Source: a virus. From it: a stretch of 64,000 nt of DNA. The stretch lies in the IMG/VR virus record IMGVR_UViG_2850695442_000001. One strand, given 5' to 3'. Below, in pieces: positions 1-62,706 of the stretch. The translations under genes were made by a program, and so were the position numbers. The notes under the pieces were generated by a model. It ran no database searches and was not told where the DNA came from. It saw nothing but the letters and a program-made list of their open reading frames with translations. How positions within the stretch are numbered: position 1 is the stretch's first letter; the number at the start of each line of letters is the position of its first letter.

Positions 1-866
1 TTATCTAATTTTAATACCCTATATTTCATTCTTTTATCTCCCCTAGCAAAAAATTCTATTAACTGTTCATCTGTTTCATGAAATTGAAAATAGTTATCCC
101 GATGAACAATTTCTAAATTATCTGAGCCACAGATGCTACAAAATTTTAGTTCACTCCCTAAATTGATTTCAAAACTTTTGCAGTCTCTACAAAAATGATA
201 GATGTTATCATCAATAGAATAAAGTAATCCAGAGTATCGGGAAGCATTCCTAGCTCCCATGTCAAAATAATTCTTTCGCAAATTGATTTTGATTTTATTA
301 TCAAAATAATCTTTAAAAGTTTCAGTCACTTGAAGCCAAGGATACTTTTGTCTTGTATGAAGTGTATTTTGTGCAACAAGAGCAGAAACATCAAAAACTT
401 TTTCTATAAATTCCTTTGACCAGTCGCCACTCGTCGCACAAGTTGGACAGAGTAATTCACTTGCAAAAGTGTCTGCCTCCCCTTCGAGTATAGAATTAAC
501 CCTTCCAAAGCCATTTCGGGGGAGAAGTCCACTATAATTTACAAAGTGTCCTAAAAGAATATGCCCCAATTCGTGAGCTAAAGAAAAGCGTATCCTTTGC
601 GGAATTTTCTGAATGGTATTGTCATTATAAAAAATAATGTAAGCATTAGTCCCTGTTTTACAGCTGAAAGCTTCATCTGAAATTTGTTCTGCTTTTTTCC
701 CTAATTTTGGAGCGATATCAGTATTAAACTTTTCATAGGTGTCCAGATGAATATTTGGAAAATTAGAAAGCAGTTGTAAGATATTAATCGGAAATGTAAT
801 GTCGCATTTTTCAACTAATATTTTCTGAGTAGTGTAGTTAATCCTAGAATAATTATATTTTCCCAT
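1..866 (-). CDS. ImmA/IrrE-family metallopeptidase with C-terminal zinc-ribbon motifs (runs off the left edge)
   Basis: Manual translation from ATG at 866: MGKYNYSRIN...RIRFSLAHELGHILLGH (HExxH)...EGEADTFASELL, then CRDC and CSIC. No stop before base 1, which is why it is absent from the ORF track. Confidence 0.85.
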   Translation of the reverse strand, partial: MGKYNYSRINYTTQKILVEKCDITFPINILQLLSNFPNIHLDTYEKFNTDIAPKLGKKAEQISDEAFSCKTGTNAYIIFYNDNTIQKIPQRIRFSLAHELGHILLGHFVNYSGLLPRNGFGRVNSILEGEADTFASELLCPTCATSGDWSKEFIEKVFDVSALVAQNTLHTRQKYPWLQVTETFKDYFDNKIKINLRKNYFDMGARNASRYSGLLYSIDDNIYHFCRDCKSFEINLGSELKFCSICGSDNLEIVHRDNYFQFHETDEQLIEFFARGDKRMKYRVLKLD

Positions 867-878
867 TTCATTGTTTTA

Positions 879-1208
879 CTACTTATCATAGCCGTTATCT
901 TTTGCGAATTTAGCAATAAGAGCCCCTAGCATATCTATTTCCTCATCTGAAAGTTCTGTATCCATTTTTCGGGCAAGAATTTGTACTTTAGGTTTTTGCA
1001 ACATTTCCTTAGGAGCATCTGCTCTACCTAGGAGATAATCAACGGTCACATTAAAATAATCAGCAACTTTTGCTAAATCTTCTCCTTTGGGTTTTGCAGT
1101 TTTCCATTTATAGATATTATTCTCGCTAAATCCTAATCTAATTGCTAAATCTTTTAGACTAATTCCTTGTCCATCAGCTAAAGATTTAATTCGTTCAAAT
1201 GTAGTCAT
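879..1208 (-). CDS. XRE-family HTH transcriptional repressor (ImmR/CI-like)
   Basis: MTTFERIKSLA...GISLKDLAIRLGFSENNIYKWK...LAKVADYFNVTVDYLLGR is a classic XRE HTH. It lies directly upstream of the IrrE-type peptidase. Confidence 0.9.
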   Translation of the reverse strand: MTTFERIKSLADGQGISLKDLAIRLGFSENNIYKWKTAKPKGEDLAKVADYFNVTVDYLLGRADAPKEMLQKPKVQILARKMDTELSDEEIDMLGALIAKFAKDNGYDK

Positions 1209-1248
1209 AATATTCCTTTCGCAAAATATCCAAAAAGATACTTTATTG

Positions 1249-1277
1249 TTGACTTATTTCTCGAAAAAGATTATAAT
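1249..1277 (+). promoter_or_regulatory. sigma70-type promoter for the rightward operon
   Basis: TTGACT (1249-1254), 17-bp spacer, TATAAT (1272-1277). Confidence 0.65.
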
Positions 1278-1484
1278 GAACCTTGTAAGAAATAAAAAAA
1301 TAAATAAAAAATCACCTAATAATTACATTAAACATTGCCCCAAGCTAGTTTGTAGAGTATTTAAGAGGATTTTTATTGTGTTTTAATATTATCATTTTCG
1401 ATAATATTTGTCAAGGGTTATTATATAAAGAAATAAATACTGTTGTCAAGAGTGATTATTTCAGAAAAAGCAGGAAGGATATAC

Positions 1485-1823
1485 ATGGAAATTAAAATTA
1501 ATGAGGAGTCGTATTTTACGGTAGAAGAAGTAATGAAAAAAACGGGACTATCAGAAAATTCACTTAAAAGTTATAAAAGTTCACGATTTCCCGAAATCAA
1601 AGAGATGGTAGTAAAAATTGGGGGAAAAACTTTATATTCCAAGAAAGCTATTGATTTTTTAAACAATCGTAAAACTGAAATGGGGTTTACTGAAGCTATT
1701 GAACTTGCTGGAATTGAATTCCCATCCAAGAAAGAAGCTGCCGCATACTTTGGCTTTCCGCCAGAAGACCTATCACGATATTTGCGCGTGAAAAAAGCAA
1801 TCGAAGCAGTAGAAAAAAATTAA
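1485..1823 (+). CDS. small HTH DNA-binding protein, possibly the partition adaptor or regulator
   Basis: RBS AGGAAGG before ATG 1485. N-terminal FTVEEVMKKTGLSENSLKSY and C-terminal FPSKKEAAAYFG are HTH-like. Immediately upstream of the actin gene. Confidence 0.55.
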   Translation: MEIKINEESYFTVEEVMKKTGLSENSLKSYKSSRFPEIKEMVVKIGGKTLYSKKAIDFLNNRKTEMGFTEAIELAGIEFPSKKEAAAYFGFPPEDLSRYLRVKKAIEAVEKN

Positions 1824-1913
1824 TTGATTTTTGTAAAAATTATCAAGGATTTTTTGAAACAAAAATATACTCATATTGTGAAGCGAAAAAGATTCACAAG
1901 AAAAGGAGAAAAA

Positions 1914-3068
1914 ATGGCAATCACAGTTAAGAAGACACTCATTTCCATTGACTTGGGAAATAAACAAGTAAAGTTAGAATCACGCGCAACAGGTGTTAAA
2001 GTTGCACCAAGTGTACTGTTAGATACGCGGTATGCACCAGATTTTTATCTTGGAGGGAAACCTGAAAATACACCGTCTATTTATCGTTTACGCCTCGATA
2101 AAGAAGAAAAATCTTTCCATTTTGGGGAGACGATAAACAGCTGGGGGAAAGCTTATGCAGGTCATTGGGAGACTTCCATTGGTTTTGGAATGAAACGCTA
2201 TACCAAACAGATTTTTAAAGAGCTTTTCCTATTTTCTGTCGCACGCGTAGTCAAGGAGATGAATACCAATCATCCTGTTCTTGATATTGTCACAGGATTA
2301 CCAACAGGCGATTATAAAGACCCAAAGGTCATAGATTATATTCGGAAAATAGCGAAAGGCTTCCACACTATCTATGTGGATGATAAGCCAGTTAATTTCG
2401 ATATCGCTTCCATTACGTTTTATCCTCAGTATCTTGGTTCTATTGCAAATAATTGTTTCCAATGGAACGGAGAAAAGTATCATCATTTGACTCAAAATCT
2501 TTCTAAGTTTTCAGGCATCCGGTATGGCTTCATGGATATTGGCGGTGGAACAATTTTGAGCGATGTTGTAGAAGGACTAAATTTTAACCTTTCAGAAACT
2601 AAAACAACAAGTCGCAATGGTGTTCATCGCCTGTTGGGACAAGTCGCTAAAGAGGCGAGTATTTCTCAAGTAGAAGCTGAACTTGCTTTATGGCATACGA
2701 ACGAGCAAGGACGTTATATTATAGGCGAGAAAACAGCAGCCCCAAAAGATATTACAGATATTGTATTGAGAGCTAAAAAAGCTTATACAGAAGTTGTCTT
2801 GCATGAAATTGAAACTCAATTTTTCCAAATTGATTTAGATGACCGACTTTCATCTGTTCGTTTGAATAAAATTTTTATCACGGGTGGAGGTGCATATCTT
2901 ATTGATGTGGACCAGCTGATTGAAGGAATTGAGAACAGCTACAATATTCCCGAAGAATTTACAGCATCTGGAGATTTCATTGAACTGCTCAATAATTCAA
3001 CAACTGCTAATGTTGAAGGTTATTTCAAATTAGGGGTGGCAGCTCACTTGGGTGAATTTGTGGAATAA
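1914..3068 (+). CDS. parM: ParM/StbA/Alp-type actin-like plasmid segregation ATPase
   Basis: Actin-fold motifs ISIDLGNKQVK (phosphate 1), MDIGGGT (phosphate 2) and ITGGGA (adenosine). RBS AAGGAG before ATG 1914. Confidence 0.85.
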   Translation: MAITVKKTLISIDLGNKQVKLESRATGVKVAPSVLLDTRYAPDFYLGGKPENTPSIYRLRLDKEEKSFHFGETINSWGKAYAGHWETSIGFGMKRYTKQIFKELFLFSVARVVKEMNTNHPVLDIVTGLPTGDYKDPKVIDYIRKIAKGFHTIYVDDKPVNFDIASITFYPQYLGSIANNCFQWNGEKYHHLTQNLSKFSGIRYGFMDIGGGTILSDVVEGLNFNLSETKTTSRNGVHRLLGQVAKEASISQVEAELALWHTNEQGRYIIGEKTAAPKDITDIVLRAKKAYTEVVLHEIETQFFQIDLDDRLSSVRLNKIFITGGGAYLIDVDQLIEGIENSYNIPEEFTASGDFIELLNNSTTANVEGYFKLGVAAHLGEFVE

Positions 3069-12315: not shown

Positions 12316-12401
12316 TAAAATAATAATGTGAGATTTTATATCTTTATATCTTTATATCTTTGTACAACTTTTATTCTAGGTACGTTCTCCTAGAATATCT
12401 A

Positions 12402-12474
12402 AGCAGAGTAGAGCAATGGCAGCTCATCTGGTTCATACCCAGAATTGGTGATGGTTCGAGTCCATCCTCTGCAA
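12402..12474 (+). tRNA. tRNA-Met(CAU), initiator-like
   Basis: Cloverleaf: acceptor AGCAGAG/CTCTGCA with a 1:72 mismatch, D stem GAGC/GCTC, anticodon arm TCTGG-TTCATAC-CCAGA, T arm GATGG-TTCGAGT-CCATC. CCA is not encoded. Confidence 0.9.
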
Positions 12475-12479
12475 TTATT

Positions 12480-13055
12480 GTCTCATCTCGGTTATACAGG
12501 GCTTGATAACCCTCCGAGAGCCTTTCTAAGTATGCCCTTAGTGGTGTATGAAAGTAACCTTTGTAAGTTTTAGTGGTGATAACCCCTAAGCGCGAAGATT
12601 GAAGCGTGTGAGCGTGAATTTGCTAGTAAAAGCTAGTGTGAAATGGAAGGTGTGGCAATGTTTTATCACTTTAGTGCATTCTTCTTTTCGGTAGATAGAA
12701 TTATACGGTGGTTGTTGCGAAAACCACAAGCAGCCGTATAGCTCAGTGAGGCTTGCTCTAGCTGGCAAGGAAACCTGAGTATTGCTAAGCAATCTGCTGT
12801 GTCGTGAAACTGAGAAATCAGGGTATAAGAGAAGCGAGAAGTTCAAGTAGCCCAAGACACATACTCATAATAAAAACATTTACTAAATTATATGTTGAAA
12901 TCTGTATCGGGTGAAAGTTGGGAGATTTTGTTTCTCGCCCAATCATTAAAAGCAATAGGAGCTAAGAGAGTTGCTACTCTTAGTAGAGCCTGTTGGGATT
13001 GTCGCATAATTAAGAGGAGTAAAACATTGTTTGGAGAAAAACCGGGACAATATTT
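12480..13055 (+). ncRNA. large ornate structured RNA candidate (ROOL-like; GOLLD is the alternative)
   Basis: ~575-nt GC-richer segment between tRNAs with only weak RBS-less ORFs and many helices: CTCGG/CCGAG, TATACGG/CCGTATA, TGGTT/AACCA, CTCAG/CTGAG, CTTGC/GCAAG, TTGGG/CCCAA, CTAAGAG/CTCTTAG, ATTGTC/GACAAT. Size and tRNA context fit ROOL. Confidence 0.55.
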
Positions 13056-13056
13056 T

Positions 13057-13145
13057 GGAGAAATAGAATGTAATTTGGTATCAGGCTAGACTTGAAATCT
13101 AGCAATCGCAAATGCGGTGTGTCGGTTCAAATCCGACTTTCTCCT
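13057..13145 (+). tRNA. tRNA-Ser(UGA)
   Basis: GGAGAAA/TTTCTCC acceptor, CTAGA-CTTGAAA-TCTAG anticodon arm, long variable arm, GTCGG-TTCAAAT-CCGAC. Confidence 0.9.
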
Positions 13146-13222
13146 TTGCCATTGTGGCGCATTTACCTAGTTTTTGTTGTTATTGTTTTGGTAGGAATTT
13201 TGCTGAAAATCCTACCTCTCAT

Positions 13223-13295
13223 AGAGAAGTAGCTCAGCGGGGAGAGCAGTGGTTTTACACTCCATATGTCAGCGGTTCAAATCCGTTCTTCTCTA
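13223..13295 (+). tRNA. tRNA-Val(UAC)
   Basis: AGAGAAG/CTTCTCT acceptor, GCTC/GAGC D stem, anticodon loop TTTACAC (stem has a T.T mismatch), T loop TTCAAAT. Confidence 0.85.
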
Positions 13296-13389
13296 TAAGC
13301 GTCAAATCTATGCTAGTAGATTTGGTGGTATTCTAGCAGATGCAATTTAAGAGCGTTCGCTTCCTCTTTGACAAATCGGAAAGACGAAA

Positions 13390-13461
13390 GTGCTTGTAGC
13401 TCAATGGTAGAGTGTTGGCTTACAGAGCCAAAGGTTGTAGGTTCAAGTCCTACCAAGCATG
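13390..13461 (+). tRNA. tRNA with ACA anticodon (nominally Cys; Arg(ACG)-like body)
   Basis: GTGCTTG/CAAGCAT acceptor, TTGGC-TTACAGA-GCCAA anticodon arm, GTAGG-TTCAAGT-CCTAC T arm, G73. Confidence 0.85.
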
Positions 13462-13496
13462 TAGTTATCATGATGATTTTTGATAGCATAATAACT

Positions 13497-13570
13497 CTGA
13501 ATATGGCTCAGTTTGGTAGAGCACCTGTTTTGGGAACAGGAGAGCGCAGGTTCAAATCCTGCTATTCAGA
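13497..13570 (+). tRNA. tRNA-Pro(UGG)
   Basis: CTGAATA/TATTCAG acceptor, CCTGT-TTTGGGA-ACAGG anticodon arm, GCAGG-TTCAAAT-CCTGC. Confidence 0.92.
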
Positions 13571-13580
13571 TTTTACAAAT

Positions 13581-13651
13581 GGTTTTGCTCAACAGTCAGA
13601 GTATCCAAACAAATTTGGGTTGGATAGGAGTTCGATACTCACACAGAACCA
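13581..13651 (+). ncRNA. degenerate tRNA-like element
   Basis: GGTTTTG/CAGAACC 7-bp acceptor-like stem, CTC/GAG D-like stem, long TATCCAA/TTGGATA arm with an 11-nt loop, and GAG-TTCGATA-CTC T-like arm. Confidence 0.5.
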
Positions 13652-14825: not shown

Positions 14826-16224
14826 TATGGAACAACACCGAAAAACTCGGTATTTTAATGCCGAGATGAAAGGTGCTTTACTGTTAATTTACCCGACGAC
14901 TTTTTTCCCATGAGATAATAAGAGAGGAAGTTGATACTTAACGAAAGGAAGAATAATAAATGGTTATACGAAAAATCGCTCAAAAAATACCTTTCAAACC
15001 AACAAAGAAGCAAATTCAGTTCTTTGCGGATTGTTTTGGTGCGAGAAGATTTGTGTATAACAGCCAAGTTGCTGTATTCAATACTTACTTTGAAGAAAAT
15101 AAGAAGTTAGTCTATCCTAAAATCACAGACCTTAAACATGAGAATGAGTGGTTAAGAGGAAGTGTTGTGCCTGCTCACAGTCTCTCTAATGCACTCATGG
15201 ATTTTGGTAAAGCTCGTTCTGCCTACTTCAAAAAGAAAAAGTATTCAAAAAATCGTCCTCGATTTCAAAGCCGTCACGATTACATTCAATCGTTCAGAAA
15301 TGGAATGCCTCTAAAAACAATTCGTGAAAACGGACGCTACCAACTTTCAAAGAAGCTAGGATATATTAAAATCCGTAAACGTGACAACCTCCGCTATCCT
15401 ATTGAACAGATGACCCAATGGACAGTCAAGCGTGAGGGCGACAAATACTATATCGTCTTCTTGTTCACGGTTGAAGTTGAAACGCAATCTGAAACCACTG
15501 GTGCAGTTGGTATTGACCTTGGCATTAAAGACTTCGCTATCACATCGGACGGCGAAAAAATAGATTTGCCTGAACAAATCGGAAAACTGGAAGCCAAAGT
15601 GATAAAAGAACAGCGTAAACTTTCACGAAAACAAAAAGGCAAAGGCAAGCAGTCGAACAACTTCTATAAGCAAAAAGCGAAGTTACAAAAGGCTCATGCT
15701 AAAGTTCGTCATGTTCGTGAGAACTTCCATCATCATGTGTCAAAACAGCTCGTTGAAGAAAACCAATTCATTGCTTTGGAAACATTGAGACCTTCTAATA
15801 TGATAAAGAACCACAAGCTGGCTCGTTCGATTGCACGAGCAGGCTGGCGACAATTCACCAATCAGTTGGAATATAAAGCTCAATGGTATGGACGTACCGT
15901 ACAACACGTGGGGCAATACTATGCAAGTTCAAAGACTTGTGGAAATTGTGGCATCATCTATCACGGTCTTAAACTTTCTGAAAGAGAGTGGACGTGTTCA
16001 GAGTGCGGCACCCATCATGACAGAGACCTTAACGCAAGCCAAAACATTCTCAAAGAAGCACAACGATTAGCTTCTTAAAATAAATACTTGTAATTGTTAA
16101 AGAACCGACCGACAATCGGGGATAGCTCGCTCAATATAAGAACCTCTGGCACACGGAAACAAATCCGGAGTCAAGTCTGCTTAGTTCGCGAGAATCTCGG
16201 TACTTTAGTACCGAGAATGTTCAA
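14826..16224 (+). mobile_element. non-autonomous IS200/IS605-family element (tnpB only)
   Basis: Left-end hairpin CTCGGTA-TTTTAA-TGCCGAG (14846-14865); right-end hairpin CTCGGTAC-TTTA-GTACCGAG followed by TTCAA (16220-16224). No tnpA. The left boundary is approximate. Confidence 0.8.
14960..16078 (+). CDS. tnpB: RNA-guided endonuclease TnpB
   Basis: Ruv[12 protein letters not shown], RuvC-II IALETL, Zn finger SSKTCGNCG...CSECG, Ruv[15 protein letters not shown]. The D-E-D triad is intact. Confidence 0.95.
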
Positions 16225-40124: not shown

Positions 40125-40481
40125 ATGAGAGATAAAAGTGCAGATGAACGAGTGATGTTAGGACGTGAAATTCTTTTCAAAGAAAATCAAATTGACGAAA
40201 TCAACCGAGAATATCAAAATCAAGAGAGTCAACTTGAACGTTTTCATAGTGAAATGAATCGTTTATTTAATGCAGAACAAGAATTGTATGCCCAAGCTCA
40301 ACAAGAGGGAGAAAATACAAGCTGGAAAGAGGCAGAATTTCAAGCGGTTAGTCAAGAAGTTCAGCGTGTTGTTTTTACCGAATCGGAACTCATTCATCAA
40401 GGTTACAGTCAAGCTCGACTGACAATTCAAGATGATATTGACCAACTTCATAAAGAGAGGAATGCTTTGCCGTGGGATTAA
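40125..40481 (+). CDS. LXG-associated helical accessory protein (DUF3958-like)
   Basis: 118-aa E/Q-rich coiled coil immediately before the LXG gene. Confidence 0.6.
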   Translation: MRDKSADERVMLGREILFKENQIDEINREYQNQESQLERFHSEMNRLFNAEQELYAQAQQEGENTSWKEAEFQAVSQEVQRVVFTESELIHQGYSQARLTIQDDIDQLHKERNALPWD

Positions 40482-42004
40482 AGTATAATAAAAATGACGG
40501 TCAACTTTTCATTTCGGCTATGAATCATAATGTTTCAAGTGCGAATGAAATCGTAAGTCGATTAAAAGACGGAAGCGACCATTTAATTAGTATGGTAAAT
40601 GGCGGTTCAGCTCAATTATCAGGAAAAGCTTATAATGCAGTTGGAACACTTTTTACAAGTCTAGTTCAACCTGTGCTTTCAAAATTAGAGTCAGCAACAG
40701 AAGATATCAAAAATGATATTCAAGTTTTTCAAGCTCAAAGCTCTGCCTTTAATGCTTTTAATGATACGATTTATGATGAAGATAGATTAAATCAATTAAA
40801 AGAGATTAAACAACAACAGCAAGCAACAGTTGTGGCTCAAATTGGCATGTTCAATAGTACCTTGTTAGGAGATTTAGCAAAAAATGTAGCCGAAGCACTC
40901 TTTTATGAGGGGAAACGATTAGAGAATGTCGCCGAGCATTATGCCAATGAAATTAGAGAAATTGATGATAAACTTCGAATTTTACATGAGTTTTCTTCAA
41001 GTACTAGTCATTTGTTTCAAGACAGTTTAACTGTTTTTCAAAGTGCTATGCAAGGGGTTAAGGCACTTAATCAAGGACGATTTGATTCTAATGGTAATTT
41101 TTCAATACCAAACAATTCTAGTATGGATTGGTATAAAACACTCACAAATCAAAAATTGGATTCAGCCTTAGTTTCAGATGATGAAGCAGAACGAGAAGAA
41201 CTACTCAAAGGACTTGATGTTAAAGGCTTGACAGATAAAGACCGAGATAAATATGAGTCGTCAGTTTCAGATATCCTCAAGACACTACAGAAACAGGGGT
41301 GGACGAAAGAGGGGCTTGAAGCTTATCTCAAAACCTTAGCGACAATCAATTCAAATAGTCATTCTGCAGGAGATGTTTTTCCAATAGATTCTTTGATTGA
41401 AAATGCACAATTAATGAAATTCTTATTGGACAATGCGAGTCATCTTGATGTTTCGAAATATGTTGAGAAAGGTTGGGAGTGGGAGAAGACAAATACTTAT
41501 TATTTTATCAATGGGGAGCCAAACTTTGTTTTAACACAACTAGGCGCATATCTTCCAAATTTTAAAGTGACCAAACAAGCCAGTCCAGAAGAAATGGCAA
41601 GTGTATCTAAAGTTGTGGAGGATAAAGTTGTTGCCCCAGGGGAAAGCCAAGCATTATTGATTGCGGATACTATTTTAGAAGAGTCAGAATTACTTAAAAT
41701 AACTGATAGTGAAGTATTTATAAAGGCATTAGGTGGTAAAACATATACAGAAAACACTAATTTCGTATATAATTTTTCTTCTGAAACAAAAGGTTACAGT
41801 GCTGCTAAAAAAGAATTTGATAGTATGAATTTATCTAATGTTAGAATATATAATCAAGGAACTGATAAAGAAACAATAGTGGGAAAACTCTCAAATGGGG
41901 ATACGGTCAATCTTCATACCTCATCATCGAAAAATATTGGGGAACCTCCATCTATTGAAATTTATGACCCAATTACTAAAAAGAAAATTAAAATAAGGTT
42001 TTAG
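40472..42004 (+). CDS. LXG-domain polymorphic toxin (T7SS effector)
   Basis: N-terminal LXG-type region (QLSGKAYNAVGTLFTSLVQP...IYDEDRL...KLRILHEFSSSTSHLF), linker, and a compact variable C-terminal domain ending PSIEIYDPITKKKIKIRF. Confidence 0.8.
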   Translation: MGLKYNKNDGQLFISAMNHNVSSANEIVSRLKDGSDHLISMVNGGSAQLSGKAYNAVGTLFTSLVQPVLSKLESATEDIKNDIQVFQAQSSAFNAFNDTIYDEDRLNQLKEIKQQQQATVVAQIGMFNSTLLGDLAKNVAEALFYEGKRLENVAEHYANEIREIDDKLRILHEFSSSTSHLFQDSLTVFQSAMQGVKALNQGRFDSNGNFSIPNNSSMDWYKTLTNQKLDSALVSDDEAEREELLKGLDVKGLTDKDRDKYESSVSDILKTLQKQGWTKEGLEAYLKTLATINSNSHSAGDVFPIDSLIENAQLMKFLLDNASHLDVSKYVEKGWEWEKTNTYYFINGEPNFVLTQLGAYLPNFKVTKQASPEEMASVSKVVEDKVVAPGESQALLIADTILEESELLKITDSEVFIKALGGKTYTENTNFVYNFSSETKGYSAAKKEFDSMNLSNVRIYNQGTDKETIVGKLSNGDTVNLHTSSSKNIGEPPSIEIYDPITKKKIKIRF

Positions 42005-49744: not shown

Positions 49745-50716
49745 ATGACAGTAAGAAAGATAAGTATTTTATTTATAGCTTCACTATTACTTTGTAGTTC
49801 AATTCCTGTAGCAGCCACACCACAGACTACAGGTGAAGCAAAACAGGATATTCTCACGACACAAGCTACAGCACAAAAGCAACTTAATCAAAGTAAGCTC
49901 ATTCAAATAAAGATTGATAAGCTCAATAAAGAAGTGACGACAGAACAGAGTGTTTTAAAAGAAGAGGCGCGTGAAGTCCAAACCAGTCAGTTAGGTTCAG
50001 GAAATAATATTATCTCTATTGTGGCGAATTCAAAGAATTTATCTGATTTTTTGATGAAAATGAATGGCATCTCCACCTTACAAAAGCAACAAGCACTACA
50101 AATTGCAGCACAAAATAAAACGCTTGTCGATTTAAAAGGACAGAAAAAGAAGTCTGATGATGCGATAGAAAAAGCAAATCAAGCGCTAAAAGAAGCACAA
50201 ACAGAATATAATACACTCTCTGCCAAAGAAAAAGCTGAATTTCTTAAAGCACAAGAAAACAAAGCCAGTGATAATATTCTCCAGTCTGTCCCAGTTTCCA
50301 ATACTAAAACTACCGCATCAGAAGTTCAATCTGCCCTAACAGCTTCGAACACTATAGTATCTTCAAGTAGTAGCAATGCAGCCAAGATTATCAGCGTCGC
50401 AAAACAATATTTGGGTGTCCCTTATGTCTGGGGAGGCACAACACCTTCCGGTTGGGATTGTTCCGGCTTTACCTCTTTTGTTTATCGACAAGCACTCGGC
50501 ATGGAAATTGGACGCACAACCTACAACCAAATGGCTTCGGGGCACTCCATCCCATTTAGTCAGGCTCAGCCAGGGGATTTGTTGATTTTTGATGGTGGTG
50601 GACATGTTGGTATTTACCTAGGAAATAACGAGATGATTAATGCAGAGAATCCATCTGTCGGTACAGTCATTGCCAGTCTTACTTATTGGCAACCAGATTA
50701 TGCCTTAACCTATTAG
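49745..50716 (+). CDS. secreted coiled-coil NlpC/P60 (C40) peptidoglycan endopeptidase (PcsB/CwlO-like)
   Basis: Signal peptide, coiled coil, YLGVPYVWGGTTPSGWDCSGFTSFVY, GHVGIY. Confidence 0.92.
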   Translation: MTVRKISILFIASLLLCSSIPVAATPQTTGEAKQDILTTQATAQKQLNQSKLIQIKIDKLNKEVTTEQSVLKEEAREVQTSQLGSGNNIISIVANSKNLSDFLMKMNGISTLQKQQALQIAAQNKTLVDLKGQKKKSDDAIEKANQALKEAQTEYNTLSAKEKAEFLKAQENKASDNILQSVPVSNTKTTASEVQSALTASNTIVSSSSSNAAKIISVAKQYLGVPYVWGGTTPSGWDCSGFTSFVYRQALGMEIGRTTYNQMASGHSIPFSQAQPGDLLIFDGGGHVGIYLGNNEMINAENPSVGTVIASLTYWQPDYALTY

Positions 50717-50728
50717 AAAGGACGAGTC

Positions 50729-50854
50729 ATGTTCATCATCTATTTTTTAATTGCTGCTTTAGCGGTTTGCGTGGGAATCTTTGCAATCATCATGGGAATC
50801 ATTGGGTTCATAGCACTTGCCGTTGAAGCTATTTTAGATAAATTGGGAGACTAG
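50729..50854 (+). CDS. small hydrophobic peptide (41 aa)
   Basis: RBS GAAAGGA; MFIIYFLIAALAVCVGIFAIIMGIIGFIALAVEAILDKLGD. Confidence 0.55.
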   Translation: MFIIYFLIAALAVCVGIFAIIMGIIGFIALAVEAILDKLGD

Positions 50855-50875
50855 CAGTTTTAATGATGAAAGAAA

Positions 50876-50913
50876 GGACTTGTTTTAAGCTCCTTTTTTA
50901 ATTTTGGGATAAT
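50876..50913 (+). promoter_or_regulatory. GGACTT-N26-GATAAT motif, copy 10
   Basis: Upstream of the pilin-like gene. Confidence 0.75.
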
Positions 50914-50950
50914 TAAACAGTATAAAATTAAATTCTTTAAAGGAGAAAAA

Positions 50951-51502
50951 ATGAAAGATGTTTTTTCTGGTATCTATACGGTCATCAACAACAACTTACC
51001 AATCATCGTATGGATTATGTTGGGAGCTTTTATCGCATTATTTCTTGTTGCCATTGGCTTTGCGGTCGTAAAGCTAATTTTTGGAGGACAAGATGGAGTA
51101 CATGCTGCTCGCCAGTCTATTGGTAAAATTCTTACAGGGGCATTGATTGCCCTCCTAGCATCTGCTTTAGCACATGGCGCGCAAACTGCTCTAAAAGCTG
51201 TCAAGATTGCAAATATCACGGTTGCTGGTGGAGGGAAAGCACAAGATGTGGTCGATACGATTGTGAGTGCAGGAAATGCCATTTTAGCATTGTTGATTGC
51301 TTTTATTCTAGTTGGAATTGTTCTTACTTGTATTGGAGCTGCCTTGATGTTCTTGGGTGGAGAAGATATGGCAAAGAAAGGGAAAACGATGTTGATGACG
51401 TGTATCATCGCTGTTGTCATTATGTTAATCGCACTCCCTGTTTCTAAAATCATATCAGATGCTTTATTAAATGGTTATAAACCACTTGATATTACAGGCT
51501 AG
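50951..51502 (+). CDS. TrbC/VirB2-like membrane protein with two tandem pilin-like units
   Basis: Two TM-GG(Q/E)D-amphipathic-TM modules: LIFGGQDGVHAARQSIGKILTG and MFLGGEDMAKKGKTMLMTCIIA. Confidence 0.65.
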   Translation: MKDVFSGIYTVINNNLPIIVWIMLGAFIALFLVAIGFAVVKLIFGGQDGVHAARQSIGKILTGALIALLASALAHGAQTALKAVKIANITVAGGGKAQDVVDTIVSAGNAILALLIAFILVGIVLTCIGAALMFLGGEDMAKKGKTMLMTCIIAVVIMLIALPVSKIISDALLNGYKPLDITG

Positions 51503-51512
51503 AGATAAAGAA

Positions 51513-51550
51513 GGACTTGTTTGAGTCCTTCTTTTGTGTTGCGAGATAAT
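51513..51550 (+). promoter_or_regulatory. GGACTT-N26-GATAAT motif, copy 11 (perfect inverted repeat AAGAAGGAC/GTCCTTCTT)
   Basis: Upstream of ORF 51658 and the virB6-like gene. Confidence 0.75.
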
Positions 51551-51657
51551 GAGACCAAACCACTTTTGAAAGGGGGGTTATCATCAAATTCAAATTTAAT
51601 ACGCTGTTAGTCAAGGGAAAGAAAGTTGTTTTTCCTTGGGTCAATCTGGCGCGTCCA

Positions 51658-52005
51658 TTGATGATAGAAGAATTCATAGGAATTGCGAATGACCTGCAAT
51701 TAAAGGCTATCCAGTTTTTAGATAATGACCTTGAAAGCTCACTTATGATAAGTCTTACTATTTCTACGGAAGACTATGCGGTGCGCCCACAAACAATTAC
51801 TATAAAATGGGACATTCAGACAATCACACTTCCTGCTCTTACGTTGATAATTACGGCAATGCTTGAACTCTGTTATCACACTAAAATTGAAACAGAAAAT
51901 GCGGAACTGTTAGGGCATTGGATATGGGAGGTCCGTCAACTTTTGGAAGAACTCTATACTATCAAAGTGGAGATAGAACAGGAGGAAGGCAACCATGCGG
52001 TTTAA
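51658..52005 (+). CDS. hypothetical protein
   Basis: 115 aa, overlapping the next gene. Confidence 0.55.
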   Translation: MMIEEFIGIANDLQLKAIQFLDNDLESSLMISLTISTEDYAVRPQTITIKWDIQTITLPALTLIITAMLELCYHTKIETENAELLGHWIWEVRQLLEELYTIKVEIEQEEGNHAV

Positions 52006-54298
52006 AAAAACGAAAATTGGCGGGCTCTTGGTTTCATTCACTTTCTTGTTAAGTCTCCGTATCCAAGCGTTTGCGGATGATAGCTTGATGTCAAAAGATT
52101 CTGCAGAAGCAATTAAGCACATTCGAGCTTGGCAAGATTATGTGAGCACGCAAAGTGTCATTTGGGATATCTTTCGCTTGATAGGATGGGGAATTGTTAA
52201 ATTTTTCTTTTCTATCAACCAAGCTTTGGCTGACTTCATGACATGGTACATCTCTCCCGCAAAAGGAATTTTCAGTATTCTTAGCCAAGGGTCAAGCGCT
52301 AAAGCTTCTGTGAGTGACCAAATTGCAGCAAGTCCCTTTGCTTTCTTGTTTTTTGTAGGGACAGCGGTCATTGTTGTGGGAGTGACGATTGCGATTGCTC
52401 TTAATGCTTTTCATTATTTTACTGGCAAAGGACGTCCAGTCAACGAACTCATTATGACGCTTCTCAAAAATGCGGGAATTATTATGTTGGCTCCCTATAT
52501 GCTTATGTTTGGACTTTTGATATTCCAGTCGCTTTCTTCAGCAGTAGGATTTACCAATAGCACGACAACAGATGCCAATGGTCTCAAAGTGACGCTTGCT
52601 TCTCAAATGATAGGAAATAATCTTATTGATGCAGAAGACGCCAATGCTCAAGACTTACCTATTTATGGGAAAGCAAAATATGAAGAAGATACGACAATTA
52701 AGGGAAATTATGGAGAATCAAACCTCAATCCTTTTCGACTCATTCCGATTGGAGCGATTGCTGGTTCAGGTTATGCCGTTGGTAGTGAGGGAGGTGTAGA
52801 AGCCTACACTAAACCGTCTGATATTTATAATATTGACATCAACCAAATCGTAAAAAATAGTCCCTATAACAGTGACAATCATACATCCACAGACTGGGTT
52901 CACGCAGCACACGGAGACTTTGGTTCAAAGGTTTCAGATTTTTTCTCTTCGGGTAATGCGGATGTAGATAAAGAAAACCTAATCATTTATACAGCACGTA
53001 ATATAGACTTGAATGAAAATCCAAATCCAGATAAAAAAGCAAGCTATTATCTGGACTCACGGACATCGGGCATTCCAAGTATTAGTGCTGGTGTTTATGT
53101 TTGGCACGTTTCATGGCTTCCTATTATTATTGGTGAGTTTGCGCTCACAATGGTTTATATTTTTGCTATCTTTAAAATTGCTAAGATTGCTTGGGAATTT
53201 ATCAATCTTTTAATTTTAGGCATTCCAACAGGCGCAGTAAAAATAGGAACAGAAGAAGGGGCAAGGTTTATTCTTGATGAGACCTTTGAAATGTTACTTT
53301 CTCTGTTTATGACCGTTATTGGTGTCAACATGTTTATTGGATTTTCAACGGTTATTGGGACATTGGTAAGTGGTTGGCAAGCTTCGGGGATGTATGAAAA
53401 TCTTCTTAAATCTGTAATAACGCCTATCTTGCTTTTGATGTTTGCAGGCTTCTCTCGTGAAGACCCACGGTTCTGGCGTGCTTCGGGTGCGATGCAGGGA
53501 AATTCCAATATGGGAATGACAACACGAGGTCTCGTGGGAAGTATGATGGCAATGAATGCGGCAAAATCTGCGATTGGAGGTGTCACACGTCTTGGAAAGA
53601 ATGTAGTTGGTTCAGATATTAAAGGTGCTATGCAACGTTCTGCTGCACAAAATGGAGGGAAAACGACCATAGGTGGAACATTGGCAAATCTTCGAGGAGC
53701 GCGTGCAGCTTCCTTTATGGGAGGTAAAGTTAATCGTGGTTTTCAGGAGGGGATGAATGCTTATCATAAATCTTCTGCAAAAACAGCTCGAAAGAATGCA
53801 GAGCATCATGACAATAGTAAAGGCAAAATAAAAGCTGCTGCTGTTGGTCTTGGAGCAGGGATTATTTCTCCCGGAATAGAAGCGGCAGGTTCTATTCGCA
53901 AGGGTTCTCGAAACTTTGGTAAAACAATGATGAAAAATACAAGTGTAGCTAAGCGAACGGGGGCTTCTGAGAAAATGAATGAAGCTGTTCGAAATGGTGA
54001 TGATAGAAAACTAGAGCATTTAGAAAATAAAGCGAAGGCAAAGCAAGATGCTGTACGTTATTCAATCCCACATAGACATGACATCTCTGCTGTTCGTAAG
54101 GCTAATAAAGCAACAACAAGAGCGTATGAAACAGAATCTAAAATAGGTCTTGCACGGGAATATGCCGCCTATGTTAGCTTACCACCTAAAGCACAAAAAG
54201 AAATGAGATTTGAGGAAGTTAATCGTCATCCATTGCACGAGGTAAATGTGGATAGCAATATGTCATTGCCGCCTAAGCGTCCTACAAAAAAATATTAA
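51995..54298 (+). CDS. VirB6/TrbL-like (pLS20_p028-type) polytopic T4SS channel protein
   Basis: Signal peptide, WDIFRLIGWGIVKFF, about 7 TMs, Gly/Ala-rich basic cytoplasmic tail. Confidence 0.75.
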   Translation: MRFKKTKIGGLLVSFTFLLSLRIQAFADDSLMSKDSAEAIKHIRAWQDYVSTQSVIWDIFRLIGWGIVKFFFSINQALADFMTWYISPAKGIFSILSQGSSAKASVSDQIAASPFAFLFFVGTAVIVVGVTIAIALNAFHYFTGKGRPVNELIMTLLKNAGIIMLAPYMLMFGLLIFQSLSSAVGFTNSTTTDANGLKVTLASQMIGNNLIDAEDANAQDLPIYGKAKYEEDTTIKGNYGESNLNPFRLIPIGAIAGSGYAVGSEGGVEAYTKPSDIYNIDINQIVKNSPYNSDNHTSTDWVHAAHGDFGSKVSDFFSSGNADVDKENLIIYTARNIDLNENPNPDKKASYYLDSRTSGIPSISAGVYVWHVSWLPIIIGEFALTMVYIFAIFKIAKIAWEFINLLILGIPTGAVKIGTEEGARFILDETFEMLLSLFMTVIGVNMFIGFSTVIGTLVSGWQASGMYENLLKSVITPILLLMFAGFSREDPRFWRASGAMQGNSNMGMTTRGLVGSMMAMNAAKSAIGGVTRLGKNVVGSDIKGAMQRSAAQNGGKTTIGGTLANLRGARAASFMGGKVNRGFQEGMNAYHKSSAKTARKNAEHHDNSKGKIKAAAVGLGAGIISPGIEAAGSIRKGSRNFGKTMMKNTSVAKRTGASEKMNEAVRNGDDRKLEHLENKAKAKQDAVRYSIPHRHDISAVRKANKATTRAYETESKIGLAREYAAYVSLPPKAQKEMRFEEVNRHPLHEVNVDSNMSLPPKRPTKKY

Positions 54299-54359
54299 TA
54301 TAAAAACAGAAGGAAAGCCCTATTTTTAGAGTTTTTCTTTTTATTAAGAGTGTAAAGAA

Positions 54360-54397
54360 GGACTTGTTTCAAGCTTCTTTTTTTATTTTGAGATAAT
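54360..54397 (+). promoter_or_regulatory. GGACTT-N26-GATAAT motif, copy 12
   Basis: Upstream of the trsD-like/virB4 operon. Confidence 0.75.
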
Positions 54398-54425
54398 CAA
54401 AAAGAAAGACAAAGGAGGTACTTTT

Positions 54426-55064
54426 TTGGGACATATTTTACTGATTGTCGGCATCATTGGGGCAATTCTAACCATTGGATTATTAGCTCTTTTATTTTTA
54501 CCAGAATTAAAAAGTTTGGGAAGCGGTAATGCTAGCGGAGGCTTGTCTTTAGCTTCTTTAGGGAAAGGTTCACTTGATGAATACAATCCCCTCATTATAG
54601 GAATTGCTGAGGATACGTATGTCATACTCTCGCCAAAAGCTGGGGGAGGCTATTATACCTACCTTAAAATCGAAGCTGTTGATTTATTTGATATTTCTGA
54701 TGAAAACTTGGAACGCCGTATTCGTGGATTCGCTAAATTCTTGGAAGCAAATGTTAAAGGCATTCAGTTCGTTAGTTTTGCGACTAAGATTGATTCAAGC
54801 CTGCAAAAGGAACATCTTTCAAGACGTATTGCAAAGGCAAAGACTGAAAAGCAACTACAACTGTTGGAAATTGAAATGCAGAAAATTTATGAAGCAGAGC
54901 TGACAGACCAACAAAAAGTATTTTATTTTAAAATATTTGACCGTAAGTTGGGAAGCTTAAAGAAGCGCATCATGTTACTAGGAGCTATTAACAATGATTT
55001 TCCTTATGAGCAAATCAAAGGAATGGATGAAATAGCCGAAATTGAGAAAAAACTTGTTGAATAA
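54426..55064 (+). CDS. conjugation protein (TrsD-like)
   Basis: TTG start after GGAGGT, N-terminal TM, immediately upstream of virB4. Confidence 0.55.
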   Translation: MGHILLIVGIIGAILTIGLLALLFLPELKSLGSGNASGGLSLASLGKGSLDEYNPLIIGIAEDTYVILSPKAGGGYYTYLKIEAVDLFDISDENLERRIRGFAKFLEANVKGIQFVSFATKIDSSLQKEHLSRRIAKAKTEKQLQLLEIEMQKIYEAELTDQQKVFYFKIFDRKLGSLKKRIMLLGAINNDFPYEQIKGMDEIAEIEKKLVE

Positions 55065-55079
55065 ATCAAAGGAGAAAGA

Positions 55080-57149
55080 ATGCGACAACAACCAACATTA
55101 CTTGGAACAAATCCTACGATATTGGGAAAGAAAAAGACTATCAAAATAAAAGGCAATAAAAAAGAAAAGCAAAAAGAGGAGAGTGCGCGACCACCTTATA
55201 CAAACGAACGAATGAAGTTGGAGCAGTTAAAGCGGTTGATTGCGAAACAACGTCAAAAGGGTTATGATGTTGATTTTATTTCCAAAACACAGCCCTCAGG
55301 GACGATTACTTTTGAAGAAAGTTATGTTCAAACAGGGAGTGGCATAGAAACGACAGTTCTTGTTGATGCATTCCCTCAAAGTCCGTTGCCTTTTTGGATT
55401 GTCAACTTAGCAGAATCAGCCCCAGATGTGATTTGTATTATGAATATTGAGTCTGAAAACAAAGTAACAACGAGACGACGATATCAAAAGATGCTGCGAG
55501 AAGAAAAATTTGGGCTAGAACACGCCAAAGATGACTCTGCGGCAATGGAAGCGCAAATTGAAGTGGAAAAATTGCAACAACTCATTCTGGGAACCTTTCA
55601 AGGGGAATCCTCTCAAAAAGTTATTTCCGTGCGCCTCACCATTAAAACGGTGGACAAAAAATCGCATCAGGAGCGTTTAACGGAATTAGTCAATACACTT
55701 AAAGGAGGAGGCTTTCATGCGCAAGCTTTTCCAAGTGACACGAAAGCACTTTATGATGCCAAATGGCTTTCTCCTGAACAGACTTCTAGTTCCTTTTATA
55801 AAATTGCGCCTTTTTCTATTAGTTCAAACGACCTCGCCAAAGGCTATCCTTTTAATCATACAGAGTTGACAGACCCAGAGGGTGCTTATCAGGGACGAAC
55901 AGACACAGGAGGGGCTATTTTCTTTGACCCTTGGTATCGTATTGGACAACGTACCGCAAGTAATATCATGATTTTAGGGAAGACCGGAGCGGGGAAATCT
56001 CACTTCATTAAGAAGAATTTAGATTTTCAAGTAGCCCTTGGGAATCGAATCATCACCTTTTCTAAAAATAATGAATACAATAAATGGACAAAAGATGTCA
56101 ATGGGATTGTCGTTGGTATGTTTAGTTCAACAGAGCGTATCAACATGATGCAGGTTTCTGGCTCTGTTTCAAAGGTAAACGAAGACGGTTCGGGAAAAAA
56201 TGAGATAGATATTTCAGCCTCATTTACAGCCCATATTTCAAGTATCGTGAATAATTTCAGATTACTTGACCGCACAATTACGGATACCGAATCGAATGCT
56301 ATGTCTGTTATTTTGAATCAGTTTTATATTGCTTATGGTATTTGGAGAAGCCCAGAAGATTTAGCGAAGTTTGGAATGCCAGATGTGACATCTTTGTCTC
56401 CTGAAGAATATCCTATTTTATCTGACCTTCAAGACTTTGTTTACAAGACTCTAGAACTTTTTACAGACGCTTCAACAGAATATAAAATGAAAACAGCACT
56501 TAAAATGCTCATAGAAGTAGGCTCTGGTGTCTTTGATGGGATAACGAATGTCCGTGACCTGACTAAAGAGCAGGTAGTTTGTTTTGATTTGGATACATTA
56601 TTAGCCCAAGACCGAGCTTTCCAGCAAATTCAGCTTGCTAATGCCTTTAACTTGATTGTTTCACAAGCATTAATTTCGGGCTTAAAACAGCGTGATTATG
56701 TGGCAGAGGGGGGCGACCCAGATGGTGTGATGCACACGATATTAATGATAGATGAGTGCCATAATTTGATTAATATTCATAATCCATTTATTGCCGAACA
56801 GGTAACGACCTCTTTGCGTGAATTACGTAAACTCTATGGTGCGATTTGGTTGGCAACACAGACACCAAAGGAAATGCGTCCTTCTGGAACACCACAAACA
56901 AAAGAATTAATGACCGCTGTTGAATCCATTAATAAGATTGTTGATTTTATGACGTATCGTTTTTTGTTTAACTTGGATAATTCAGCTGAAATCAAAGATT
57001 TGATTGGAGATAACCTCCCGGAGGAATATGCAAAAGCTATTCCACTTCTTGACAAAGGGCAATGTGTCTTTATGTCTGGGAAGACGGTTATGAAAATGAG
57101 CGTCCACTTTGACCCTGTACGTAATCAAGTCTATTCAGGAGGTGAATAA
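55080..57149 (+). CDS. virB4: VirB4-family conjugative ATPase
   Basis: YPFNHTELTDPEG..QGRTDTGG, Walker A GKTGAGKS, Walker B LMIDECH, LRKLYG..WLATQ. Confidence 0.92.
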   Translation: MRQQPTLLGTNPTILGKKKTIKIKGNKKEKQKEESARPPYTNERMKLEQLKRLIAKQRQKGYDVDFISKTQPSGTITFEESYVQTGSGIETTVLVDAFPQSPLPFWIVNLAESAPDVICIMNIESENKVTTRRRYQKMLREEKFGLEHAKDDSAAMEAQIEVEKLQQLILGTFQGESSQKVISVRLTIKTVDKKSHQERLTELVNTLKGGGFHAQAFPSDTKALYDAKWLSPEQTSSSFYKIAPFSISSNDLAKGYPFNHTELTDPEGAYQGRTDTGGAIFFDPWYRIGQRTASNIMILGKTGAGKSHFIKKNLDFQVALGNRIITFSKNNEYNKWTKDVNGIVVGMFSSTERINMMQVSGSVSKVNEDGSGKNEIDISASFTAHISSIVNNFRLLDRTITDTESNAMSVILNQFYIAYGIWRSPEDLAKFGMPDVTSLSPEEYPILSDLQDFVYKTLELFTDASTEYKMKTALKMLIEVGSGVFDGITNVRDLTKEQVVCFDLDTLLAQDRAFQQIQLANAFNLIVSQALISGLKQRDYVAEGGDPDGVMHTILMIDECHNLINIHNPFIAEQVTTSLRELRKLYGAIWLATQTPKEMRPSGTPQTKELMTAVESINKIVDFMTYRFLFNLDNSAEIKDLIGDNLPEEYAKAIPLLDKGQCVFMSGKTVMKMSVHFDPVRNQVYSGGE

Positions 57150-62200: not shown

Positions 62201-62706
62201 TAGATGGTATTGTTTATCAAGAAAACAAAGAATTTTACACTCAAACGAAGGAAGCTTGGAAAGTCTCAGAAGAAAAGCTTCGACAAGAAAAACGGCGAGA
62301 AGCCCGCAAAAAGGAGCGGGTGAAAAAAGAACAAAAGCAAAAAGAAAAAATCATAAGTCGAGAAAAAGCCGAAGAAGTCAGCAAGGCGCGTGAAGATAAA
62401 ATTAAAGAGTTGTTTCCTGATGAATGGTACTTAGTTAAAGCACTTAATGGACGATGGATGAAAAAATATAAAGGGCGGATTACTGCTATCGCTCTTACAA
62501 AACGTGAAGGGGATTATTATGTGAGAGTCCACATTTCTGATTTTAATAAGAAAACATTCAAGGAAAGAAAAAAAAAACAAATTATTGACCATTTCTATGG
62601 GTTTAGCTCTGAAGTGCATTTTAGAGGCGAAAAGCATCTCTCTATTCCGATTTCAACACTCAAAGAATTTTTTTACAAGGAGACAGTGGTAGCAGCCATT
62701 TTGTGA
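59293..62706 (+). CDS. DEAD/DEAH-box SF2 helicase (phage/type III Res-like) containing an intein
   Basis: After splicing: ATGCGKT Walker A, VDETHH, TATADRTD, LTEGWD, YAQCIGRGTR; long basic C-terminal extension. Confidence 0.9.
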   Translation: MDLIKELDIKNDVPSVKLRYYQEEAKAAIEAEWEKGNKRTLVVMATGCHRVGEGLLMADGTVQKVENIKVGDKLLGGDGSPRTVLKRHEGEDEIYEIKPIKGKSFFVTGNHKLTLVKTRRRGDNSPQYPSYQYDASFVDVSVDDWLSWGKTQKHIHKLVRTTGVEFLNKVTLPLPPHFLGVLLGDGGLKYQLNVTTMDEEIVEELINQTKALNMELSHTPAGRAKTYKFLDNHKHNNKLRNILDTLDLTDKGSEEKFIPQIYKTASTQDRLELIAGLLDTDGSLSNTTYDFTSKSKQLAEDLVFLCRSVGLAAYMSEAKKGIKSLNFEAIYWRVCISGNTDRIPCRVAHKIASKRKQKKNVLRTGFTVTPVGKDNYVGFTVDGDNRYLLDDFTITHNCGKTIVMAKVAEEQQRLHPDKQILVLAHRGELLNQAMNKFEKATALTTVKEKAQETSIGSEAQVVVASVQTMKNDKRLHQFDPEQFSTIMVDETHHIMAKMYRKVIDYFPNANMLGVTATADRTDKLDLGEVFDSVAYEYDLATAIKDGYLSPLTAQTIPINIDLNGVHMKAGDFNESELDDVLGPYLERIADEMVLACEGRQTVVFMPLIATSKRFVDILNKKGFRAAEVNGQSKNRDTILKDFENRKYEVLVNAILLTEGWDCPTVDCIVMLRPTKSRSLYAQCIGRGTRLSQGKKECLILDFLWNSSKHALCHPVSLLTKNEALVHNASLLAQNGEPKAVDELVEEAKEEYKKAQYAQLTRELEALSIRRRRKKLDPFEIFLGNANGVDFSDETQKMTMSQNQKNWLDSNNIDTSLIKTYAQAESLINQLTHREPDQATLKQVKLLKDKGFKQADQWTKVEASEVIGKIAENFWEVPRSIHPNTYQPKRLENIENKENSSSIQHSEIKERIKKFDKLIEKQFLELIASDKEVTANDKLRKAMLQAMMEEKSNRVTAIKRAFLQKKSQKEIDGIVYQENKEFYTQTKEAWKVSEEKLRQEKRREARKKERVKKEQKQKEKIISREKAEEVSKAREDKIKELFPDEWYLVKALNGRWMKKYKGRITAIALTKREGDYYVRVHISDFNKKTFKERKKKQIIDHFYGFSSEVHFRGEKHLSIPISTLKEFFYKETVVAAIL
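59434..60483 (+). mobile_element. intein with LAGLIDADG homing endonuclease (350 aa)
   Basis: Starts CHRVGEGLLMADG, contains FVTGNHKL (block B), LGVLLGDG and IAGLLDTDG, ends FTITHN, followed by the C+1 Cys. Confidence 0.95.

Follow-up and report, generated by a model that had tools for sequence, protein, structure and literature searches.

We found that an integrated conjugative element (ICE) carries, within a tRNA array, an RNA gene that on the evidence of its sequence is a bona fide ROOL, a fresh member of a known RNA family. The window, by which we mean the whole 64,000-nt stretch of DNA that was analyzed, corresponds to G000:C1:187379-251378 on a 2.695-Mb chromosome, and the ROOL gene occupies 12475..13056 on its plus strand. 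A first-pass annotation had described a gap of about 575 nt at 12480-13055 between tRNA-Met and tRNA-Ser genes and had proposed, from size and context, that it most likely holds ROOL. ARAGORN places the ends of the tRNA-Met(CAU) and tRNA-Ser(UGA) genes within 5 nt of those positions and leaves a tRNA-free gap of 582 nt at 12475-13056. When this region was searched with Rfam 15 covariance models, the ROOL model (RF03087) matched window positions 12463-13064 on the plus strand with 171.8 bits (E 1e-36), against a gathering score of 99.1 bits, so the family assigned earlier by context is borne out by the model. The match is full length (model positions 1-574 of 574), and the size of 582 nt compares with a family mean of 581 nt. 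The overrun into the flanking tRNAs, of 12 and 8 nt, arises only because the long A/U-rich P1 helix of the model aligns to the tRNA ends. The GOLLD model gave no match at its gathering threshold, nor at E-values up to 1, which rules out GOLLD identity.

ROOL is single-copy in a genome-wide search of the 2.76-Mb genome. As had been remarked, the gene is richer in G+C than its surroundings, although the difference is slight (40.2%, versus about 37% in the 5-kb flanks and 36.2% in the window). An antisense open reading frame of 89 codons runs through positions 12586-12855 and is conserved in none of the ROOL relatives; we therefore rejected a coding reading and treat 12475-13056 as non-coding. 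A blastn search with the ROOL sequence against PLSDB plasmids and GenBank phages returned no match, because the sub-family to which it belongs is too divergent for sequence search.

We identified ROOL in 7 of 150 other Streptococcaceae species genomes and recovered four more copies from viral contigs. Three of these relatives, from Lactococcus muris, L. ileimucosae and Pseudolactococcus laudensis, score 166-174 bits and form one clade with the ICE ROOL (support 0.997). The ICE copy is 62-65% (about 64%) identical to the three, which are 80-93% identical to each other, and the four-member sub-family shares only about 40-47% identity with the other ROOLs compared. Streptococcal phage ROOLs score 240-355 bits, well above the 172 bits of the ICE copy, and are about 40-45% identical to it; the top-scoring one resembles parts of phages Javan246 and PH15 (85% identity) and matches no plasmid. 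The three closest relatives (L006/L020, L007/L022 and L008/L021) lie in prophages, between a late transcriptional activator and the small terminase subunit gene (terS). A 25-base pattern specific to the sub-family occurred in no viral contig and, among genomes, only in the three already known. A looser gapped pattern retrieved 111 viral loci, most of which are apparently chance matches because nhmmer flagged only 4 as ROOL-like. Among the viral-contig copies and the Streptococcaceae copies with a resolved genomic context (all but L003, L004 and L005), the ICE ROOL is the only one on a conjugative element, and every other copy is phage-borne. A recent transfer from phage to ICE is unsupported, since identity to the closest copies is only about 64%.

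The sub-family alignment was used to examine RNA structure. RNAalifold predicted 144 pairs in 24 helices from the four homologues, which agrees with the earlier description of the region as dense with helices, and 97% of alignment cells are paired across those 144 positions. Compensatory changes, in which both sides of a pair are altered, occur in 48 of the 144 pairs, compared to only 2-7 in controls in which pairing partners were slid by 1-3 columns; none of 500 shuffled controls reached the observed values. The alignment comprises four sequences, three of which are close kin (the prophage copies), and the compensatory changes mostly separate the ICE copy from these because the ICE copy is the outlier. 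The fold has therefore been maintained through about 36% divergence. The first-pass annotation had named the lack of both a covariance-model match and covariation as grounds for abandoning the ROOL call, and the region has both. The folding energy of the single sequence is unremarkable (z = -1.94) and is weak evidence by itself.

The core of the RNA, at model positions of about 290-430, contains the GUAUAA, AGUAGC and GUGAAAGUUGG motifs and aligns to RF03087 at high posterior probability. The peripheral stems diverge from the model, and one small hairpin at model positions of about 450-461 is deleted. The 9-bp closing helix P1 pairs a 5' strand at 12476..12484 (+), which starts 1 nt past the tRNA-Met discriminator base, with a 3' strand at 13044..13052 (+), which is followed by UUUU and then by position +1 of tRNA-Ser. 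For the ROOL family, three pseudoknots or kissing loops are predicted, and one of these joins separate molecules in the cage. A search for complementary unpaired segments yielded low-complexity candidates only, and the covariance model ignores pseudoknots. An A/U-rich linker at 12855..12905 (+), delimited by the covariance-model alignment, varies in length among relatives and aligns with low confidence; the corresponding linker in the published env-120 structure is disordered and apparently lies inside the cage.

The gene is embedded in an array of five co-oriented tRNA genes called by ARAGORN, all on the plus strand: tRNA-Met(CAU) at 12402..12474, the 5' flank of ROOL; tRNA-Ser(UGA) at 13057..13145, of the long-arm type and the 3' flank; tRNA-Val(UAC) at 13222..13296; a tRNA with anticodon ACA at 13390..13461; and tRNA-Pro(UGG) at 13496..13571, the final gene. 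None of the five encodes its CCA end. An upstream non-coding leader at 12335..12396 (+) contains three tandem copies of an 8-nt repeat (TTTATATC) at 12335-12364, then a palindrome (TTCTAGG...CCTAGAA) that ends in TAGAAT immediately 5' of tRNA-Met. The leader is a possible weak promoter or operator; a promoter scan found no convincing sigma-70 promoter upstream of the array, and no terminator was found within or ahead of the array. Some of the tRNAs have unusual features. The tRNA-Met called at 12402-12474 has an A1-A72 mismatch atop its acceptor stem and an anticodon stem with just two G-C pairs, and its identity could be initiator, elongator or lysidine-Ile. A T-arm-like motif (GGAGTTCGATACTC) lies at 13600-13650, 3' of tRNA-Pro, where no complete tRNA is called; it may be a decayed sixth tRNA.

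The same tRNA-ROOL-tRNA sandwich is found in all four sub-family genomes, with inter-tRNA spacers of 553-582 nt. In each of the four copies, 0-1 nt separates the start of P1 from the discriminator base of the upstream tRNA and 4-5 nt separate its end from the downstream tRNA, and the flanking pairs differ: Met/Ser for the ICE copy and Phe/Trp, Asn/Met and Ser(GCU)/Asn for the other three. A fifth copy of the cassette, on viral contig L125, adjoins tRNA-Trp and is interrupted by the contig end. The sub-family to which the ICE ROOL belongs is divergent and takes the form of portable tRNA-ROOL-tRNA cassettes.

This geometry suggests how the RNA is made. Each ROOL in the cassettes begins with the bases UU, and a UU start favors cleavage by B. 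subtilis RNase Z. From the abutting tRNAs, the absent CCA ends and the lack of a terminator or a convincing promoter, we infer that ROOL is co-transcribed with the tRNAs and released by RNase Z and RNase P. With no terminator and no convincing promoter of its own, ROOL would be transcribed together with the five-tRNA array. An RNase Z cut after the CCA-less tRNA-Met (12474|12475) would set the 5' end, an RNase P cut before tRNA-Ser (13056|13057) would set the 3' end, and a 582-nt RNA with its ends clamped by the 9-bp P1 helix would be left. Such clamped ends would fit the stability and abundance of the ROOL of L. salivarius, a discrete, very abundant and stable 520-nt RNA (PMC5643018). That accumulation as a discrete RNA bears on another account of the cassette, in which the ROOL fold mainly governs maturation or storage of the flanking tRNAs and does not act as a free RNA. 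ROOL does abut tRNAs on both sides, and "inhibited storage" has been proposed for tRNAs embedded in GOLLD (PMC12990946). However, many ROOLs have no nearby tRNA, including four streptococcal and other loci (L002-L005) for which the surveyed sequence extends about 1.5 kb per side (L004 and L005) or less on short contigs (L002 and L003). We consider a role confined to tRNA precursors distinctly improbable.

We next considered the carrier. The first-pass annotation had called it a conjugative, ParM-partitioned element with no phage structural genes in view. The conjugative call holds, and VirB4, a coupling protein (T4CP) and a channel protein can be added to it; the refinement is that the carrier is an integrated ICE and not a free plasmid, because it is chromosomally integrated, with a tyrosine integrase and att repeats. 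The island (C1:184661-299960) is a 115.3-kb insertion relative to 285 bp at the same place in G066, the genome of the closest species, which is 90-96% identical in the flanks. On its left side it adjoins the 3' end of the small SRP RNA gene (RF00169; L015:17193-17289), downstream of tadA, and a 17-bp direct repeat, CTTATGTGCTCTTTTTT, bounds the island at G000:C1:184642-184658 and 299668-299684. The right junction holds a partial copy of the SRP RNA 3' end. The integrase lies just inside the left end, to the left of the window. The window itself opens with a regulatory module (3..1823, both strands) that comprises an ImmA-like M78 peptidase (3-866, minus), an ImmR-like HTH repressor (879-1208, minus) and a divergent Xis-like HTH_17 protein (1443-1823, plus); this int/immA/immR/xis-like arrangement is an ICEBs1-type layout. 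It is followed by an actin-like partition ATPase of the ALP_N/Alp7A type (1824..3068, plus), in line with the partition system reported earlier.

Gene order after the partition gene is a DnaD-like initiator candidate, a C5 methylase, the tRNA/ROOL array, an IS605 TnpB, SSB and RecT, so that ROOL sits between replication/partition genes and ssb/recT establishment genes. Farther along the island are a PARP-type domain, helicases and TopoIII, then the conjugation genes and an LPXTG adhesin with a sortase. The conjugation module (49745..57149, plus) encodes an NlpC/P60 wall hydrolase, a weakly pilin-like protein, a pLS20_p028-type transmembrane channel protein (51995-54298, plus; family E 1e-21, below the curated cut-off) and VirB4 (family E 2.4e-57). 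VirB4 is divided between two in-frame genes, of which the first (54426-55064, plus) encodes a 212-aa N-terminal membrane part and the second (55080-57149, plus) the 689-aa ATPase part. We rejected a virB4 pseudogene, since a ribosome-binding site and an ATG come after the in-frame TAA, a two-gene arrangement. Beyond this module, a TraG/TraD-type coupling protein is represented by weak matches, and two Replic_Relax-type proteins, candidate relaxases, have weak scores (E 4e-4 and 7e-7).

It could be argued that the carrier is a prophage or phage-plasmid, which would make this an ordinary phage context for ROOL, and the island does encode phage-like RecT, SSB and DUF1351 proteins, an antirepressor and an S24 repressor. 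Against this, Pfam and PHROGs searches of the larger open reading frames of the whole 115-kb island gave no match to a terminase, portal, capsid or tail protein, which extends to the entire island what had been noted of the part first in view. The VirB4, T4CP, channel, wall hydrolase and adhesin/sortase genes also speak against a phage. We therefore rejected the prophage reading, which we regard as very improbable indeed, and treat the carrier as an ICE.

Several other features of the island deserve mention. It may be a composite of two elements, because an internal tRNA-Met fragment and an IS110 are present. A sixth tRNA-Met-like gene lies within the island at L016:11812-11886 (G000:C1:263190-263264); ARAGORN calls it complete, its Rfam match is partial, and it is up to 97% identical to the chromosomal tRNA-Met of other lactococci. 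The IS605-family tnpB gene (14960-16078), 1.4 kb downstream of the array, is 82.5% identical in DNA sequence to the transposase of Lactococcus phage 949. A 1137-aa SNF2/ResIII helicase (59293-62706) is split by an intein that contains Hint and LAGLIDADG homing-endonuclease domains. Two LXG-domain polymorphic-toxin-like proteins are encoded at window 40472-42004 and L016:12753-14648, of which only the latter clears the Pfam cut-off.

The neighbors of the array led to a related element. The ICE belongs to a rare kind of element: a 284-aa neighbor protein had homologues in none of 400 Streptococcaceae species. The 240-aa product of the gene immediately upstream of tRNA-Met had a single homologue (58% identity) among 5.8 billion proteins, and this homologue is encoded on an 87-kb metagenomic contig, L135. 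The contig has the same order of genes as the ICE: ALP, five genes, the 240-aa homologue, a tRNA array and SSB. Its array contains four tRNAs and lacks ROOL. Two anchors are shared by the arrays. The 5' half of the ICE tRNA-Met is orthologous to the first tRNA of L135, and a 253-nt block (Val/Phe, spacer, ACA/UCA) is 89% identical between the two. Between these anchors the ICE has the 3' half of tRNA-Met, ROOL and tRNA-Ser, whereas L135 has an anticodon arm with an insertion, then a 190-nt spacer and a further tRNA-Met. tRNA-Ser(UGA) has no counterpart in L135, and no ROOL scar was found in the 190-nt spacer of that contig. Because everything between the two orthologous anchors differs, ROOL and tRNA-Ser behave as a swapped-in module. 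ROOL is an optional cassette, or cargo, in this element family, since the only related element found has the orthologous array at the same place without ROOL.

The two arrays also differ in their tRNAs. The body of the ICE tRNA-Val(UAC) (13222-13296) is 81% identical to tRNA-Phe(GAA) of L135, and the ACA tRNA (13390-13461) is 92% identical to its UCA tRNA. Comparison of window 13222-13461 with L135:11234-11472 suggests anticodon switching within a mobile-element tRNA array. The L135 counterpart of tRNA-Met(CAU) (L135:10818-10915) is 98 nt long and has an insertion of about 25 nt beside the anticodon loop, which could be an intron, or the gene could be a tRNA-like scaffold with a replaced arm.

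The optional presence of ROOL raises the question of whether it is a passenger, selfish or neutral, which recombination moves from one tRNA array to another with no benefit to the ICE. Its absence from the only sister element, which retains an orthologous array, would be expected of such a passenger, as would flanking tRNAs that are unlike in every copy, the pattern of a shuffled cassette. In addition, the L. salivarius mutant that lacks ROOL is viable and, apart from a reduced megaplasmid ratio, shows no clear phenotype (PMC5643018). A passenger of this kind is harder to reconcile with the full-length model match and with a structure kept over about 36% divergence by 48 compensatory pairs, which together argue for selection on the RNA, although this selection could date from phage ancestors. 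We judge pure hitch-hiking rather unlikely.

RNA-only hexamer or octamer cages have been established for three ROOLs, those of env-120, E. faecalis and L. salivarius (PMC12286853, PMC12990946). By homology to these solved ROOLs, the ICE RNA is predicted to fold flat and to self-assemble into a hollow cage of the hexamer or octamer type. Cage formation is not assured, because its peripheral stems diverge and the small hairpin is deleted, and changes of this sort alter stoichiometry in the L. salivarius ROOL (PMC12990946).

One role that has been hinted at is an effect on replicon level: when ROOL was deleted in L. salivarius, the megaplasmid-to-chromosome ratio fell from 1.61 to 1.16 (PMC5643018). 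By analogy, the ICE ROOL might raise or stabilize the copy number of the excised, replicating element, and its position just downstream of the ALP partition gene and the DnaD-like initiator candidate is consistent with such a role. However, the closest relatives sit between the late activator and terS, away from replication genes, and the sister element has the same replication/partition genes without ROOL. Replicon maintenance is therefore a quite unlikely explanation.

We then examined the cargo that accompanies ROOL. The host already carries tRNAs for all four standard anticodons of the array: Met(CAU), Ser(UGA), Val(UAC) and Pro(UGG). UCA, GUA, CCA and AUG codons are no more common in 55 ICE open reading frames than in 1502 host reading frames; UCA, for example, occurs at 15.7 per thousand in the ICE and 20.9 per thousand in the host. 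Codon compensation was rejected on both counts, the anticodons being redundant with those of the host and their cognate codons not enriched in ICE genes. Kinase/ligase pairs of the Pnkp/Rnl1 type are the classic means of repairing tRNAs cut by anticodon nucleases. The same island encodes a 349-aa Pnkp-like P-loop polynucleotide kinase (best PDB matches Pnkp1 4xrp and the C. thermocellum Pnkp kinase domain) adjoining a 369-aa T4 Rnl1-family RNA ligase (PDB 2c5u, 5tt6) at L019:2099-4495 (G000:C1:293477-295873), to the right of the window. The two genes resemble a tRNA-repair pair, here on a conjugative element with tRNAs of its own. The genes are about 93 kb from ROOL on the integrated map and would be about 20 kb away if the element circularizes.

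Because codon compensation fails and the island has a Pnkp/Rnl1-type pair, the most economical reading of the cargo is a tRNA/translation-centered counter-defense package. ROOL would support this counter-defense upon entry or induction of the element, and its partners would be the redundant backup tRNAs and the RNA repair pair; co-location is what points to a share for ROOL itself. As a whole, the explanation we favor is that this is a functional ROOL gene, tRNA-processed and cage-forming, carried as optional ICE cargo that aids counter-defense. We consider it reasonably probable: it joins the observed family identity, structure conservation, cassette geometry, ICE context and optional presence to a processing route, cage formation and biological role that we infer. 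A bolder version is that ROOL is a portable cassette dependent on tRNA processing, swapped among phage and conjugative tRNA arrays, which with backup tRNAs and Pnkp/Rnl1 constitutes an RNA-based counter-defense; one way would be for the cage to act as a decoy for, or to sequester, host or competitor nucleases aimed at tRNAs or ribosomes while the element enters or is induced. This version is speculative and, in our estimation, unlikely. If it were true, the ICE and L135 would form a natural test pair.

The ICE ROOL can be set beside several known systems. It shares with the ROOL family (RF03087; Weinberg 2017, PMC5737381; PMC12286853, PMC12990946) a full-length match, multi-junction architecture, a variable A/U-rich linker and tRNA neighbors on a mobile element. 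It differs in that the sub-family P1 is shortened to 6-9 bp and butts against the tRNAs, and in the hairpin loss and ICE carrier of this copy, for which a cage is predicted by homology. The L. muris, L. ileimucosae and P. laudensis cassettes belong to the same sub-family and have the same spacer range and tRNA junction geometry; the ICE copy differs from these prophage copies in its place between replication/partition and establishment modules, in its flanking tRNAs and in its identity of about 64%. The L. salivarius megaplasmid lncRNA (Cousin 2017, PMC5643018) is likewise a ROOL outside a phage. The text of PMC5643018 refers to tRNA a single time and describes no tRNA-flanked arrangement, the carrier is a megaplasmid and not an integrated conjugative element, and blastn against the plasmid collection detected no sequence similarity to the ICE copy.

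The closest parallel in layout involves a different RNA. According to Morgado 2020, as cited in PMC12286853, GOLLD is embedded in tRNA arrays on the plasmids, phages and chromosomes of mycobacteria. Array units are found on conjugative-type linear plasmids (PMC12803027), and such GOLLD arrays have been suggested to be anti-defense cargo (PMC12803027; Morgado 2020 as cited in PMC12286853). As in the ICE, a large, ornate, cage-forming RNA lies within a tRNA array on a non-phage mobile element. However, the sequence and fold are unrelated, and the mycobacterial arrays cover 19-20 amino-acid specificities compared to the five tRNAs of the ICE. Non-phage carriers of ROOL have been reported before, namely L. 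salivarius megaplasmids and E. faecalis chromosomes (PMC5643018, PMC12990946). Our literature search found no paper that connects ROOL with conjugative elements, and the novelty here is a new kind of carrier, an ICE, for a known RNA family.

ROOL cages are known in structural detail, and discussion of ROOL has been tied almost entirely to phages. A structurally intact copy on a conjugative element shows that the role of ROOL is not specific to virion production or lysis. The exact butt-joint with the tRNAs offers a concrete, testable route of biogenesis through RNase Z and RNase P, and the redundant tRNAs and RNA repair pair on the ICE point experiments toward defenses that target tRNAs or translation. 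With the ROOL-less array of L135 as its natural comparison partner, the ICE ROOL is a tractable system in which to test what this RNA does.
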